From Candidatus Aenigmatarchaeota archaeon (GTDB taxonomy: Archaea; Aenigmatarchaeota; Aenigmatarchaeia; CG10238-14; SpSt-28): 64,000 nt of DNA. A program made the translations under genes and the position numbers. Within the stretch, counting starts at the first letter, position 1, and each line of letters starts with the position of its first letter. The stretch spans positions 71,863 to 135,862 of the forward strand of contig JAVYPJ010000001.1 of the NCBI GenBank assembly GCA_038733315.1, in the 5' to 3' direction. This document shows, piece after piece, positions 7,278 through 62,000 of this stretch. Under the pieces are notes generated by a model. That model was not told the DNA's origin and did no database searches. It was given only the letters and a program-made list of their open reading frames with translations.

Positions 7278-8085
7278 AATATTTACATCAGGATAGATAT
7301 GTGAAATAATCTTTTTAAGCTGAAACCCATTTTTAATAAATTTCCCAAATATTAATCTAGAAATTTCTAATGAATGACATTCTATAATCCATTCAGAAAT
7401 TTGTTTTATTAAATCGTCGTCTACAAAAACTAGAAACTTTTCACAACCTTCGCAATCTATTTTAGCTATATCTACTTTTTCCTTAATTGCTTTTTTCTAG
7501 GACTTCTTTCCAACATATACACTTAACTTTTATTTCTTTTGGTTTGTTTACTTTATTTTTAAATAGTGATAATTCACCATATCCATATTCGCTTTCCTCA
7601 ACTATAAATTTCATTATGCCGCTTTCTTTACAAACTGCATAAGGATATATTTTGCAATTAATATTGAATTTTTTAATAATCTTATTAGCAAATTCTACAT
7701 TTTCTTTGATTGGTTCATATGCTATAATCCTTTTGGCTCCAAGCTTATGAAAAAGTAAAATGCTATCTCCTATCCATGCACCAACATCCAAAACAACTCT
7801 ATTTTTAAATTTTATACCAAAATTTAGATAATCCAAAACATCTGTATTTATTTTTCCGTATTTAAGATAATAATAGTAATTAATGTTTATATGTTCTATT
7901 AGTTTTTTATAATTAAACTCATAAATTTCCTCGTTAAGATAAAATCTATATTTTTTCTGTCTAAAAATTAATGATTTTAGAAAATTCAAAAAATTTATAA
8001 AGATATATATATTTTTTGCAAAAATACAGAATAAATATACATCTCTTAGAAAATAAAAAAATTTTCTCCTAACGTTTTTTATCAT
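7251..8085 (-). pseudogene. FkbM-family SAM methyltransferase, frameshifted at an A6 run
   Basis: LDVGAWIGDS and YEP in ORF 7483-8085; KIDCEGCE and the C-terminus lie in the next frame (7490 to 7251); extra base in run 7491-7496. Confidence 0.85.
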
Positions 8086-24041: not shown

Positions 24042-25959
24042 CTAAACTTCAATATTTACACTTTTTATTCCAACTAATAATCCGGGACATACGTCTAAAC
24101 AATAAACTTCTATTTTTTTAATTTTCCCCTTAGGTAAATCTTTTAAAGGAATTTCTAAAAAATCTCCAAGCTTAAAAGTTTCATTCAGATTTATATTTCT
24201 TGTTTCTGTTTTGTTATCTTCGTATATTAATTTTAACTGTAATTTTTTACCTAAATCAATACCTAAATTTATTATAGTTAGTTTTATTATTGGAGAGGTT
24301 TCTTCGGTCTGTAGGGAAATTGTTGGTTCTGGAGATGAATATTTAAATGGTAATACTATGCTAATACTTTCAGATGTATAATATCCTCTTTCAAAAACTA
24401 AAATCGGTTTATTTGATGCTATCCTTATTAATCCCCAAGATGTTGTTACAGAATATTCTAATTGCTGTCCTTTATTTATAGCAACATTCGTATATGTTAT
24501 AGCACCCGAAATATTAAATACTGTATTATCTTCAGTTCCAATAATTCTTACATATCTTGAACCCCTACCAACTCTAAAAACAAAATATGTTCCCGCTCCT
24601 TTTCCATTTATACTTGGAATTTGTTCAGAACCATAATTATAATAATTGCCCTCTGTATAAACTAATACAGGCTTATTTGCAACAACCTTCATTCTAACAT
24701 ACTCTGGAGCATTACTTGAAAAACTTGTTATCTGTTGTGTTCTTATATAATCTCCTTCATTTGCTAAAATTCCTGACCAATCTCCTGTAGTTCCTTCCAA
24801 ATTATCTATAATTACATTTGTATTAGGATATAAAGCTGAAACTATTGTATAGCCATGAGAATAAAAGTAATAAATTTGAGTTCCATTTGGATAAGTTCTT
24901 CCATATATAATTGTGTAAATACTATCATCTTCTAAACCAAATTGAGCTGTTACATCATATGTTGCATTTATATAATAAAATCCAGGTGTTAAACTCCCAG
25001 AATACCAGCATTGACCTTCATTTAATGTTCCACTATATACATCTTGTAAATTAGAATTTTGTACTCTAACAAAATTATTATTATCATAGCTACAAATCCA
25101 TAAATGTCTTGGAACTCTAATCCATATTTTGTTTCCATAAATACTTGTTACATCATCATCTGAATCATGATCTGGTCCTATATCATCATAAGTTAAAGAA
25201 ATTGGTTTTGTTGATTTTATATAATAAGGATAATCTGAATTACAAGTATATGATGTAGATTGGAATTTATTTAAAGCTATTGTTTGAACTAATTGCCAAG
25301 TATCACTTCTATATATTGTTATAGTATTTCCATCTTCGTAAGAAACTATTCTAAATGCTGTTCCATTTCCAGTACTAACATTCAAACATGTAGAATAAAA
25401 CTCTGTTCCAATATAATTTGGAGTAATTAAGGAAAAATCTTGTTGAGAGTTAGCATTAGGATTTCCATAATACAAATAAATTATTTTTTGAGAATTAGCA
25501 GGAATGTTTGGTACTTTTACCCAAATTCTCGTATTATTTGTATTACAAGTATTTGGCTCTATCCAATAATTTAGTAAAGTAATTCCATCACTATCTGTAA
25601 ATCTAATATCTCCACAATCACTTCTCATTTTTCCTTGAGAAATCAATTCTTGAGTATTTATTGTTACTAAAATTTGATAATCTTCTAAATTCTCTGAATT
25701 CTGAGTATTATTTATTATTATAGGAATTCTATATTTAAAATCTTTATTAGCATTAAAATCTATTCTTGCCTTTGAACATTCTATAATTGATTTTATTGGA
25801 GAGGTTTCTTCAGTTTTTGTTTCTAAATAAGAAACGTAGCCAGAAAAATAAAGATATAATGTAACTCCAATTCCTATTGTTAAAGCAACTAAAATAACTG
25901 TAGCTACATATACGGAAATTAATTTTTTTAAGCTCGAATTTTTATATATATATATTCAT
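24042..25959 (-). CDS. Type IV pilin-like protein with an inserted DUF2341-like plus IgGFc-binding-N-like cassette; ATG out of frame
   Basis: Frame is open from 25955 to 24042 and encodes KKLISVYVATVILVALTIGIG..., a DUF2341-like head, a passenger and a pilin-like C-terminus; nearest ATG (25959-25957) is shifted by (AT)6. Confidence 0.8.
24288..24305. repeat. 18-bp direct repeat TATTGGAGAGGTTTCTTC (other copy 25794-25811)
   Basis: Both copies encode EETSPI; 1506 bp apart, in frame. Confidence 0.85.
25944..25955. repeat. (AT)6 microsatellite just after the ATG; candidate phase-variation switch
   Basis: Minus strand reads ATG A (AT)6 AAAAATTCG; n=4 or n=7 restores the frame. Confidence 0.75.
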
Positions 25960-26023
25960 GTTTAATTTCATGTAATTTAATTTTACCGAAACTCATAAAA
26001 ATAAAAATTATTTTATTTTTTAT

Positions 26024-27781
26024 TTATTTTGATAAGCTATTTACTAAAATATTGCCAATATCTTTTTCATATTCTTTAATTTTCTTTAAAACACCCGATA
26101 AAAAACTTTTAGCTTCATTTAAAACATTTTCCAAAGAATTTTTTCCCTCTATTATTTCATCTGTCTTCTTTTCAAATTCCCTTGTTAGCTTTTCGCTCAA
26201 AATTTCTGGACAGTATTTAAGGAAAGTTTCTACAACAGCTTTTCCTAAGCTTGTGATTTTCATTTTATCGTTAACTATATAGCCCCTATCATACAAAGTC
26301 TTAACTATTTCAGCCCTAGTAGTTTTAGTCCCTAAGTTCCTTGCCTCTAATTCTTTTATTAAGCTTGCTCTAGTATATCTTGCAGGAGGTTTAGTCTTTT
26401 CTTCAATCAATTTTAAATCCTTTACCGAAATTTCTTCAGATAAACTTAACTTAGGTAATAAATCTTCTTGAAGATTCAAAAATTTTTTATAAATTTTTAT
26501 CCAGTTTTCTTTTACTGTCTGATGAAAAACATTTTGAAAAAAGAAGTTATCAATCTTTGCAACTATTTTAATACTTTTTCTTATCGCTGGCTTATGTAAA
26601 CAAACTAAAAACCTTCTAACTATTAAATCATAGAGTAAAACCTCTTGTTTTGATAATTCTTTATATTTTGGTATTTCATCTGTAGGAATTATTGCAGGAT
26701 GTGCAGGATCTTCTTTTTTTCCTTCAGTAACTTCAATTTTATCGAACGATAAAATTTCTTTAACTAAATAACTATAAAATGGGATTTCGCTAAGAGAATT
26801 TAAAATTGGGAAAATGTTTATTCCTTTTAGTTTTTGAGAAGAAGATCTGGGATAAGAAATATATCCTTTTAAATATAAGCTTTCTGCAATTTTTAAAGTA
26901 TATTCTGGCTTAAAGCCAAAAGCATAATAAGCTTCTTCTTGTAAATCTGTAGTGTTAAATGGTGGTAAGGGATTTAATTTATATTCTTCTTCTTTAATCT
27001 GAATTAATCTACATTTTTTACCTTTACACTTTTCAAATATTTCTTTTGCCTTATTTAAATCCTTAATTTTTTCTTCTATATAAAAAACGAAAAATTCTAT
27101 TCCATCTTTTTCAAGAATTGCCTTAATTTTATAATATTTTTCTGGTTTAAAATTTTCAATTTCCTTTTCCCTTAAATAAACTAAATATAAAGCTGGTCCT
27201 TGAACTCTACCTATTGATAAAATTTTTTTCTCATTCGAAACTCTTCTTAAACTAATCATTAAAGCTCTTGACAAATTAATCCCCCAATACCAATCTAAAT
27301 AATGCCTTGCTAATCCCGCATTTACTTGATTAATTTCAAATTCAATAAGATTATTAAAAGATTTTATTAACTCATTTTTTGCTAAGGTGCTAAACTTCAT
27401 TCTTTTTATTTCTTTATCTAAGCCTATTAAATATCTTATTATATTCCATGCAATTACATATCCTTCAATATCGTAATCAGTTGCTACAATAACTTTATTT
27501 ACATCTTTTGCCAAATTTTTTATTAATTTTGCAAATTTTTCTGCTTTATTATCAACTATTTCCCAATCTGCATTAAAAATTGGATAATCGAAAAAATTGT
27601 TTTGGGGTTCTAATTTATATAAATGACCTAATGCAGAAACAACATAATAAACTTTGTTATTATAATAAGAAACAAAATAAGGAACTTTGTTAGAAAAAAT
27701 AATTTTACACTTAGGAAATAAACTGTATGCAATTTTCTTCATAGCTGTAGGTTTTTCAGCTAATATTAGAATTTTCTCCAT
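26024..27781 (-). CDS. topA: Type IA DNA topoisomerase
   Basis: AEKP, ATDYDIEG, SIGRVQGP, ISYPR, AHPAIIPT, LGTKTTR. Confidence 0.95.
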   Translation of the reverse strand: MEKILILAEKPTAMKKIAYSLFPKCKIIFSNKVPYFVSYYNNKVYYVVSALGHLYKLEPQNNFFDYPIFNADWEIVDNKAEKFAKLIKNLAKDVNKVIVATDYDIEGYVIAWNIIRYLIGLDKEIKRMKFSTLAKNELIKSFNNLIEFEINQVNAGLARHYLDWYWGINLSRALMISLRRVSNEKKILSIGRVQGPALYLVYLREKEIENFKPEKYYKIKAILEKDGIEFFVFYIEEKIKDLNKAKEIFEKCKGKKCRLIQIKEEEYKLNPLPPFNTTDLQEEAYYAFGFKPEYTLKIAESLYLKGYISYPRSSSQKLKGINIFPILNSLSEIPFYSYLVKEILSFDKIEVTEGKKEDPAHPAIIPTDEIPKYKELSKQEVLLYDLIVRRFLVCLHKPAIRKSIKIVAKIDNFFFQNVFHQTVKENWIKIYKKFLNLQEDLLPKLSLSEEISVKDLKLIEEKTKPPARYTRASLIKELEARNLGTKTTRAEIVKTLYDRGYIVNDKMKITSLGKAVVETFLKYCPEILSEKLTREFEKKTDEIIEGKNSLENVLNEAKSFLSGVLKKIKEYEKDIGNILVNSLSK

Positions 27782-59021: not shown

Positions 59022-62000
59022 ATGAAAAAAGAAAAAATTTTTTTGATTTTTCTTTTTTTTACAATTTTTATATTTAACTTTTCTCTATCTTTTTCTCAAA
59101 CCTGGCTTTCTGGTTGGCAATATAGAATTCCAATAACAATTAGAGAAAATTCTGGGAATACTTTAACAGATTACCAAATTTTAGTAACAATAAATACTCA
59201 GAACTTAATTTCTCAAGGAAAAATGAGAAGTGATTGCGGAGATATAAGATTTACTGATAGTGATGGAAGAACTTTATTGAATTATTGGATTGAAGATGGA
59301 TGTAATTCTACTAATACAAAAATTTGGGTAAAAGTACCAAATATTCCTGCTAATTCAAATAAAATAATTTATTTGTATTATGGAAATCCAAATGCTAATT
59401 CGATGAGTAATGGAGATTTGGTTTTTGAATTTTTTGATGATTTTAGAACAAATCCCAATACAAATGGTAAATGGAGAATTTTTAGATACTCAAATGACGT
59501 TAATAACGAGTTCGTATGGGACAACACAAATAATCAAGTGTATCTGACAAGAAATTTAAATGGTAAAGGTGTTATGGCGTTTTTTAATAAATCTTTTTCA
59601 CCATATAATACCATTACAGAATTTGAAATTTATATTGGCGGCGGTAATGGTGCTGACGGATTGTCGTTTTATTTCGATAAAAACATAAATCCATATATAA
59701 CCTATGGAAGAGCACTTGCTGGAGGCAGTATGGCAAGTATGGCCTTCGATGGTTCTAATTCCTATCTTTCTGAAGGATATAGCATAGGATTCGATACTCG
59801 GCGAAACACCGAAAATGGATATGAACAATCTACGCCACATATAGAAGTTGCAAGGACTAGCGCAACAAACCCTAGTGTACATTATTCGGGAGCTCATCTA
59901 ACTTCCGTCTCTTATTCAAACTTAAGAGGAAATTGGTTGAAGGTAGTAGTAATAATAAAATCTAATGCTGTTGAAGTTTATATAAACAACGTTCTACAAC
60001 TCAGTTATACTGGTTTAACATCTCTAAATTATAACTGGCAGGGGATTGGTGCGTCGACTGGCGGGTATAATGACAATCATGCGATAAAAAACTTAAGAGT
60101 TAGAAAATTCGCACCACAAGAGCCAACATATACATTAGGTAGGGAAGAGTCCATCACTTTAGTTCCCGTATGGCTAAGTTATTTTTCTAACGTTTCTCAA
60201 GCTATAATTAATCAGCCGATAAAATTTTCGAGCTTATGGAATGCTTCCCAAATTCCATATTTAACCCAACCTTCTCAAACCTGGCTTTCTGGTTGGCAAT
60301 ATAGAATTCCAATAACAATTAGAGAAAATTCTGGGAATACTTTAACAGATTACCAAATTTTAGTAACAATAAATACTCAGAACTTAATTTCTCAAGGAAA
60401 AATGAGAAGTGATTGCGGAGATATAAGATTTACTGATAGTGATGGAAGAACTTTATTGAATTATTGGATTGAAGATGGATGTAATTCTACTAATACAAAA
60501 ATTTGGGTAAAAGTACCAAATATTCCTGCTAATTCAAATAAAATAATTTATTTGTATTATGGAAATCCAAGTGCTACTTCTATGAGTAATGGAGATAATA
60601 CTTTTATATTTTTTGATGATTTCTCCTTTAGAAACATTTCCAAATGGAATTGGCCTGACAACTGGATTATAGAAAATAACACAGCAAAACAAACAGTAGC
60701 GAATTGGTGGAGTTCCGAGTTGATCTCTCAAAAACTGAATATTGGAATCAGCAATTATGTTGGTATTTGTATAAAAACGTTGGCCATAAACGACGGCACC
60801 GTTCGGGCGTACGATGTTGTAGTCTCAGTTAATATTAGTAATTCGTGGTATAATTCACCGTTCTTTACAACGTCCTATGCATGGTACGGTTTTTTCGATA
60901 GAATATGTTCTGGAAGTGGAAGTTGCCCGTATGGAGAGACTAGGCAATGGAGAGTCTATGATATTATAATATTTACTAATAATCAAACGTGGTATTTGGA
61001 CGGATCTGTTATAGATTCTAGAAATTCAGCCGTAGGTAATATTATTTATAATTTTGCCATAAATTCAAAAGGTGTTAGTAGATTCGATTATTTTATAGTT
61101 AGAAAATGTAGTAGAATAAATCCAATTGTTTCTCTTGGAAGTGAAGAGATACTTTCCTCATCTTCAAGCGTCTTTCTCTCAAACTACATTTTCTCATATA
61201 AATTAGGAAATTCTCAATGGATTAATGAAACCTATAGATTTGGTCCCGTATATCAAACCTGGCTTTCTGGTTGGCAATATAGAATTCCTATAACAATTAG
61301 AGAAAATTCTGGAAATACTTTAACAGATTATCAAATTTTAGTAACGATAAACACTCAGAACTTAATTTCTCAAGGAAAAATGAGAAATGATTGTGGAGAT
61401 ATAAGATTTATAGATAGTGATGGAAGTATTTTATTAAATTATTGGATTGAAAGTGGTTGCAATACAACTAATACAAGAATTTGGGTAAAAGTACCAAATA
61501 TTCCGGCTAATTCTCAAAAAACAATTTATTTGTATTATGGAAATCCAAGTGCTACTTCTATGAGTAATGGAACTAGCACTTTTATATTTTTTGATGATTT
61601 TGAAGATGGTGATTACACTAATAATCCTGTATGGAATATAGATACCGGTCAAAAAATATGTACAAGCTACTGTTGTGGAAGTTATAGTGCTTCTAACAGA
61701 TATTTAGAATTAACATCAGGTTTTTGCTCTTTAAATCTTTATTCAGATTTACCTCAACCGATATCACCACAAAAAATAGCAATAGATTTTAACTCTTGGT
61801 GGACAGGAACACATTGTTATAATAATGAAGTTCTCTTACTAAACTCATCAAACGCTATAATGATTGGTGGTGGCGGTGTTTTATGTGATTATCATTCTAT
61901 AAGAGCCCTAGAGCTTAGAGTAAATAATAATTTTTATTCTAGCAGCTTGGATTTCCCATATGGCACTTGGCATCGTATAACTATTATATTTAATGGAACT

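Follow-up and report, generated by a model that had tools for sequence, protein, structure and literature searches.

A candidate slipped-strand contingency locus at the 5' end of a DUF2341 surface-protein gene in an Aenigmatarchaeota archaeon

In the genome of this tiny Aenigmatarchaeota archaeon from a hot spring, the gene for a DUF2341 surface protein opens with a short alternating A/T tract whose number of units decides which upstream start codons are in frame with an intact gene body, and that number differs among close relatives. We put the probability at roughly 0.55 that this is a simple-sequence (slipped-strand) contingency locus, present in a start-less phase in the genome studied here. 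In bacterial pathogens the switching of surface proteins on and off by repeats is textbook knowledge, but archaeal examples are scarcely documented: our literature search returned no paper on repeat-driven switching of a DPANN or nanoarchaeal surface gene, in agreement with a first-pass annotation of this DNA, which had described phase variation in DPANN archaea as poorly documented. Passages of one preprint state that contingency loci have been studied in archaea and give no archaeal example (PMC12633550), and the relevant part of a review lists archaeal phylogenies as future work (PMC11868660).

The open frame and its product

The gene body is a long open frame that begins at 25955, immediately after an in-frame TGA. 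The frame, its modules, its upstream neighbour and the existing gene call are listed below; positions are those of the window, the whole 64,000-nt stretch of DNA analysed, unless a contig is named.

24042..25955, minus strand: long open frame of 637 codons plus stop (P0001), with N-terminal helix, DUF2341 domain, beta-rich middle and conserved C-terminal module
25437..25619, minus strand: DUF2341 domain (residues 113-173; PF10102, E 2.5e-21, 76.4 bits versus a cut-off of 23.4)
24045..24350, minus strand: C-terminal module (residues 536-637), common to the paralogs and P0007
25626..25628, minus strand: internal ATG of the existing automatic gene call (P0002, 528 aa)
26024..27781, minus strand: upstream neighbour, type IA DNA topoisomerase (Topoisom_bac, E 6.4e-112; Toprim)

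The first canonical start codon within the frame is a TTG at 25646, which is codon 104 and lies well beyond the hydrophobic helix, bearing out the earlier observation that no in-frame start precedes that helix. The genome has 327 stop-to-stop frames that are 250 codons or longer, and in these the first start falls at a median of codon 5 and a 95th percentile of codon 29. The gene ranks fourth of these 327 for lateness of its first start, with two of the three frames above it sitting at contig ends. It is thus nearly unique in the genome in having no early start, indicating that non-canonical starts are no habit of the organism.

The product can fairly be described as a surface protein and possibly an adhesin, and it may mediate attachment. 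It had previously been called a pilin-adhesin; the DUF2341 assignment in that name is solid, and the pilin-type signal is weak. KK precedes the N-terminal helix, and the UpsA N-terminal model shows a weak, sub-threshold likeness (18.4 bits versus a cut-off of 130), with no pilin-family match found in Pfam at E values up to 0.1. Class III signal peptides of archaeal pilins combine a short charged leader with G, A or S at the cleavage site and a hydrophobic helix after it; at the residue where archaeal pilins carry G or A, the gene product has L. The predicted structure, of low confidence (mean pLDDT 58.7), has the N-terminal helix at residues 9-45 with beta-rich domains after it, and Foldseek returned only uninformative matches to generic multi-domain beta proteins (TM-score at most 0.12).

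The passages of one study that deal with archaeal type IV pilus loci propose, by analogy, that the DUF2341 proteins encoded there are tip adhesins (PMC4858521). Our gene resembles the proteins described in those passages in placing DUF2341 behind an N-terminal hydrophobic helix, in a genome that encodes T2SSE-type ATPases (5 matches). It differs from them in its weak pilin-type signal and in its position, between the type IA topoisomerase gene and a CDC48-type ATPase gene and outside any pilus operon. The genome's match to an A24 peptidase scores 24.9 bits, just below the cut-off of 26.5.

The family to which the gene belongs is modular, with near-identical 5' (signal/helix) and 3' cassettes (25760-25945 and 24045-24350 here; C2:95289 and C2:41605) around unrelated middles, which are RCC1 repeats in P0006, LamG in P0007 and a beta-rich domain in our gene. 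This arrangement suggests cassette exchange by recombination. Elsewhere in the window, at about 59115-61568 (G000:C1:130977-133430, plus strand), lies an open frame of 1377 codons; its three DUF2341 copies share 74 to 77% identity with the domain of our gene. Outside the window, an 8909-codon open frame that runs off the contig start (G000:C1:3-26732) probably encodes a giant surface protein, and a G9 run is found inside a 249-codon open frame (G000:C1:38177-38185), in a genome of 27% G+C where the second-longest G run measures 7.

Frame arithmetic at the A/T tract

The elements at the 5' end of the gene are as follows.

25943..25955, minus strand: alternating A/T tract of 13 nt in the window sequence, counted as (AT)6 in the first-pass annotation
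25942..25959, minus strand: proximal ATG and its 5-codon frame to TAA (MNIYI*), in frame with the body at 4 or 7 units
25969..25971, minus strand: middle ATG, sharing the frame of the proximal ATG (MKLNMNIYI*), conserved in our genome, G004 and G018
25928..25996, minus strand: distal ATG (25996-25994) and its 22-codon frame to TAA at 25930-25928, in frame with the body at 5 or 8 units
25946..25983, minus strand: 38-nt segment, shared by the three orthologues and missing from both in-genome paralogs (alignment A2)
25760..25945, minus strand: 5' cassette, 97% identical in nucleotides to paralogs C2:95289 and C2:41605

From 25959 to 25942 the minus strand reads ATG AAT ATA TAT ATA TAA (MNIYI*), as first reported, and the tract supplies codons 1-4 of the long open frame (ATA TAT ATA TAT). 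By frame arithmetic, a change in unit number shifts start codons into or out of frame with the intact 637-codon body. Tracts of 4 or 7 units bring the middle and proximal ATGs into frame, those of 5 or 8 units the distal ATG, and with the 6 units of our genome no ATG, GTG or TTG is in frame upstream of the body. One added AT unit joins the ATG at 25959 to the frame 25955..24042. The first-pass annotation had it right that 7 units lead into a long lesion-free frame (637 codons and a stop, with no internal stop) and that 4 units restore the frame as well.

It had also noted no longer AT repeat in the window, and at 13 nt the tract is indeed the longest dinucleotide repeat there, the runner-up being (AT)5 at 8003-8012. 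It is the longest in the whole genome too (733 kb in 7 contigs, 27% G+C, 94% complete), with a runner-up of 12 nt at C1:140932. Length alone carries little information: the genome holds 1 alternating A/T 13-mer compared to 0.4 to 1.6 expected (analytic, Markov order 1 to 4), and across the whole genome and these model orders the tract is neither longer nor more frequent than composition predicts. Its mere existence is within chance and unremarkable alone, so the weight rests on its position and on the length differences between relatives. As to position, it is a perfect short tandem repeat located in the 5' coding region of a surface-protein gene, as a contingency locus would have it.

Candidate start codons and the 38-nt segment

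The 411 confident gene starts of the genome show no Shine-Dalgarno signal and a TATA signal at about -32..-24, with T at position -1 in 70% and at position -2 in 63%, a profile on which the genome's genes appear leaderless. This TT-ATG consensus context is found at the distal ATG only. The middle and proximal ATGs are without it, the proximal one being preceded by AC in place of the genome's usual TT, and in G004 the proximal ATG is replaced by GTG. The context of the distal ATG, tttttatttttATGAGTTT, is identical to the starts of both paralogs; its frame passes through the tract and is open in 3 of 3 orthologues, and a -1 shift at A AAA A would also bring it into the gene frame. These features make the distal ATG the better candidate start. 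The first-pass annotation, which had seen the proximal ATG and overlooked those at 25971-25969 and 25996-25994, had taken the proximal one as the start; the GTG in one orthologue and the missing TT context argue against that choice, and the distal ATG needs 5 or 8 units, not 7.

Comparison with the two in-genome paralogs separates the cassette from what precedes it. Identity to the paralogs spans the first 186 bases, starting exactly at the downstream end of the tract. Both paralogs open with tttttatttttATG AGT TTY and enter the common cassette five codons later (MSF(R/S)NKNSSLKKLIS). Our gene shares the paralog-type tttttatttttATGAGTTTC at the distal ATG, which is followed by the 38-nt segment. 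This segment can be placed only to within a few bases; in it lie the middle and proximal ATGs, a near-tandem duplication of 12 nt and the greater part of the AT tract. Its length of 38 nt is not divisible by 3, which puts the paralog-type start out of frame with the body. Removal of the segment as a small intron or hairpin was considered and rejected, the fold of 25915-26000 being no better than shuffles (z -0.35).

After the topoisomerase stop and directly before the distal ATG, the minus strand carries a T5-A-T5 run (26024-26000), by its appearance an oligo-T terminator of archaeal type for the topoisomerase gene. The T5-A-T5 motif also precedes the starts of both paralogs.

Tract length in relatives

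The orthologous locus, marked by the topoisomerase followed by the gene, is present in a genome of the same genus (G004) and in a further relative (G018), whose orthologue has 87% protein identity and likewise a 637-codon frame. All three genomes with readable DNA at the locus (our own, G004 and G018) have a 13-nt tract of 6 units and the same frame offset, and alignment A2 shows no other indel from the distal ATG into the cassette. Two codons past the tract, G018 has a TTG in frame.

Longer tracts are represented by two proteins and one metagenome contig. P0123, an 86-aa partial product on a 33-kb contig, begins MNIYIYKNSSLKKLIS, is identical to our gene at 83 of 84 aligned residues and is the very product predicted for a 7-unit allele (MNIYIYKNSS...). 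P0007, from an NCBI metagenome-assembled genome, begins MKLNANIYIYKNSS, that is, at the middle ATG with 7 units, and combines a G018-type cassette with a different middle domain. The 7-unit form foreseen in the first-pass annotation is thus represented twice, with the unit number read in both cases from residues and not from DNA. Since a protein search finds in-frame alleles only, these two cases show that 7-unit alleles exist, not how frequent they are.

The third case is a hot-spring contig of run X5 in which TATA is inserted in the tract, giving 8 units (k=31, k-mer depth 21.3, 4 mismatches in 87 aligned bases, flanks 95% identical; the depth at the X5 site includes paralog contigs). The contig spans the 38-nt segment, indicating that it derives from an orthologue and not from a paralog. 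Its alignment ends at the distal ATG, and restoration of the frame there assumes that the distal ATG is present. The contigs compared came from four hot-spring runs of four studies; since the 5' cassette occurs in three copies, contigs are interrupted at the tract.

The lengths observed are 6, 6, 6, 7, 7 and 8 units, with collinear flanks, so that unit number varies among close relatives while the flanks are conserved, the pattern expected of a contingency locus. Every allele seen with other than 6 units restores the frame to an upstream ATG (the 8-unit contig on the assumption just given). Because our own type of relative shows 6, 7 and 8 units and the G018 type 6 and 7, tract length has changed more than once.

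Pattern scans for the tract added no further lengths. In metagenome contigs none of 55 matches was orthologous, and in genome contigs the 3 matches were the G004 locus, the G018 locus and one unrelated bacterium; the exact locus of P0007 was not found in 118 genomes of the order. A TAA in the homologue of another relative, G012, was discarded as a lesion, being an alignment overhang upstream of a normal ATG.

Selection, frame breaks and slippage

Over 633 codons, our gene and the G018 orthologue, both free of stops, give a dN/dS of 0.31 and a dS of 0.23, which indicates at the sequence level that purifying selection acts on the gene body. Divergence between the two is much higher in the first 70 codons (dS 0.76), a pattern that agrees with a 5' cassette homogenised with the paralogs of the same genome.

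Frame breaks occur elsewhere in the family. The G004 orthologue (G004:C1, about 151.9-152.0 kb) has a second break mid-gene at CTA AAA AAG TAG, where the downstream frame is -1 and the slippery heptamer A AAA AAG lies directly before the stop; decay, a switch at the A-run and programmed frameshifting might each account for it. In another relative, G002, two tandem family members on contig C6 (about 27.9-29.1 kb and 32.5-33.8 kb) are each split: at GGA AAA AAT TTG the N-terminal cassette (72 to 78 codons) parts from a LamG-like body of 324 codons, and a -1 shift is required to join the two. Upstream of the ATG of the first copy, at a distance of 12 nt, lies an AT tract of 15 nt; the second copy has TTTATATAA-type sequence there.

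As regards slippage, searches of the genome (94% complete) detected neither MutS_V nor NucS_C although their controls responded, and passages of one report describe slipping of archaeal PolB and PolD on repeats in vitro (PMC4134008). Homopolymer runs in the genome number 745 (A7), 111 (A8) and 1 (A9) for A and 678 (T7), 81 (T8) and 5 (T9) for T. The ratio from one length to the next is ~0.45 up to 7 and then falls abruptly, which suggests that long A and T runs are strongly avoided through selection against slippery tracts.

Discussion

As a contingency locus, the AT tract would be a hot spot of slipped-strand change, and its length would fix the frame in which the start codons stand to the gene body. 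Changes in its length would arise through replication slippage and would be frequent and reversible within populations. The 6-unit allele would offer no in-frame start and would not be translated, alleles of 4 or 7 units would be translated from the middle or proximal ATG, and alleles of 5 or 8 units from the distal ATG, which has the context of the paralogs and of most genes in the genome. On the evidence of its reading frame, the 6-unit gene is most likely silent. All three 6-unit alleles look like a null state; G004 has a second break and G018 a TTG after the tract, and our own copy has neither.

The phase-variable switch proposed in the first-pass annotation is upheld in its frame logic, in the 7- and 8-unit alleles and in the constrained gene body. 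It fares less well against the 6 units of all three genomes in which the DNA was read: these genomes are well diverged (dS 0.23 to 0.76), and a fast unbiased switch would be expected to scatter. Further points that count against a switch are the shortness of six units for a contingency tract, the missing start context at the middle and proximal ATGs, and the G002 tract that lies upstream of a normal ATG at the distance of a TATA box.

The uniform 6 units may instead mark the working state. Translation would then begin, without a leader, at the distal ATG, and part of the ribosomes would slip by -1 on A AAA A where the tract ends and so enter the long frame; alternatively, a non-AUG codon, for instance the ATA at 25955, would serve as the start. 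Length variants would be tolerated changes of the leader with no switch involved. The frame offset conserved in 3 of 3 orthologous genomes agrees with this, as do the consensus context of the distal ATG and the distal frame that stays open through the tract in all three orthologues. The other breaks in the family also need a -1 shift at A-runs, at CTA AAA AAG TAG in G004 and at GGA AAA AAT in the two G002 copies, the latter heptamer presumably matching the -1 site of Sulfolobus fucA. However, the shift site here, ATA AAA ATT, is not an X XXY YYZ heptamer and allows a single-tRNA slip on A AAA only; no stimulatory structure was found downstream in any of the three orthologues (z-scores 0.48, -0.76 and 0.38); and an open stretch of 18 codons before the tract has a chance of ~1 in 5, estimated from base frequencies. 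Nor does the genome make a habit of non-canonical starts, and in-frame alleles exist (P0123 and the 8-unit X5 contig). We regard a working 6-unit state as decidedly unlikely.

Ordinary loss would account for the same locus through a recent inactivating 2-bp change at a mutational hot spot followed by decay, or through an assembly or consensus error in the 6-unit count. Family members do decay, as the second frameshift of G004 and the split G002 copies illustrate, and null alleles can persist, as that second lesion also indicates; the tract length is within chance expectation, and P0123 may derive from a very near genome. Against this, three independent assemblies agree on 6 units, the k=31 contig at depth 21 backs a real length variant, and a dN/dS of 0.31 with no stop in 637 codons is hard to square with decay when ~1 random codon in 12 would be a stop (base-composition estimate). 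Inactivation or error is, in our estimate, an improbable account. We hold it very improbable that the tract is a promoter element, a TATA box whose length tunes transcription and beside which the upstream ATGs are incidental. Tracts so placed that they could have such a role occur among the relatives, in 2 of the 12 loci inspected: G002:C6 copy 1 has a homologous ATGA and 15-nt AT tract at -27..-13 from the canonical ATG ACT AAA AAA TTA start of a family member, and in G008 a plausible gene start has a tract at -29..-17. It would also suit a genome with a TATA signal at about -32..-24 and apparently leaderless genes. In our gene, however, no in-frame ATG, GTG or TTG follows for 103 codons after the tract, so a transcript starting ~25 nt downstream would be start-less; the sequence directly past the tract is coding in both paralogs, and the TTG of G018 is too near the tract to fall downstream of such a transcription start.

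A slipped-strand contingency locus remains our preferred reading, and bacterial loci of related design are known. In Helicobacter pylori, oipA (hopH) and related outer-membrane protein genes carry CT/AG dinucleotide repeats in the signal-peptide coding region. The likeness is close, with a dinucleotide repeat just past the start of a surface gene, unit number setting the frame and strains differing; oipA is, however, bacterial, its repeat is CT and its switching has been shown experimentally, whereas here a DPANN-type archaeon has 6 to 8 AT units known from contig and protein comparison. The (CAAT)n repeat of lic1/licA in Haemophilus influenzae is accompanied by several start codons in different frames, and as in our gene it lies between alternative ATGs and the body, so that repeat number picks the start and leaves one phase off. 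The lic1/licA repeat is a tetranucleotide of many units in a bacterial LPS gene, and in our gene two of the three phases have a candidate ATG. In the same species a (TA)n promoter repeat controls the pilus genes hifA/hifB, which resembles the promoter-placed tract of G002; it acts on promoter spacing and not on the reading frame, in contrast to our tract, which lies inside the open frame.

A more far-reaching proposal, which we consider unlikely, is a three-phase stochastic switch in which the repeat picks between two leader peptides (from the distal or the middle ATG) and an off state. The tract would then be one of several slippery tracts, the A-runs of G004 and G002 among them, that randomise the surface-adhesin repertoire of a host-dependent, nano-sized archaeon without recognisable mismatch repair, forming a 'phasome' for host attachment or virus avoidance.

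For annotation, loci of this type would be systematically mis-annotated, as the automatic call P0002 illustrates: it starts internally and drops the membrane-anchoring N-terminal helix. Tiny symbiotic archaea live attached to host cells. If the contingency-locus reading is true, an attachment protein that switches at random would let such cells hedge, by simple means, between hosts or against viruses for which that protein serves as receptor.
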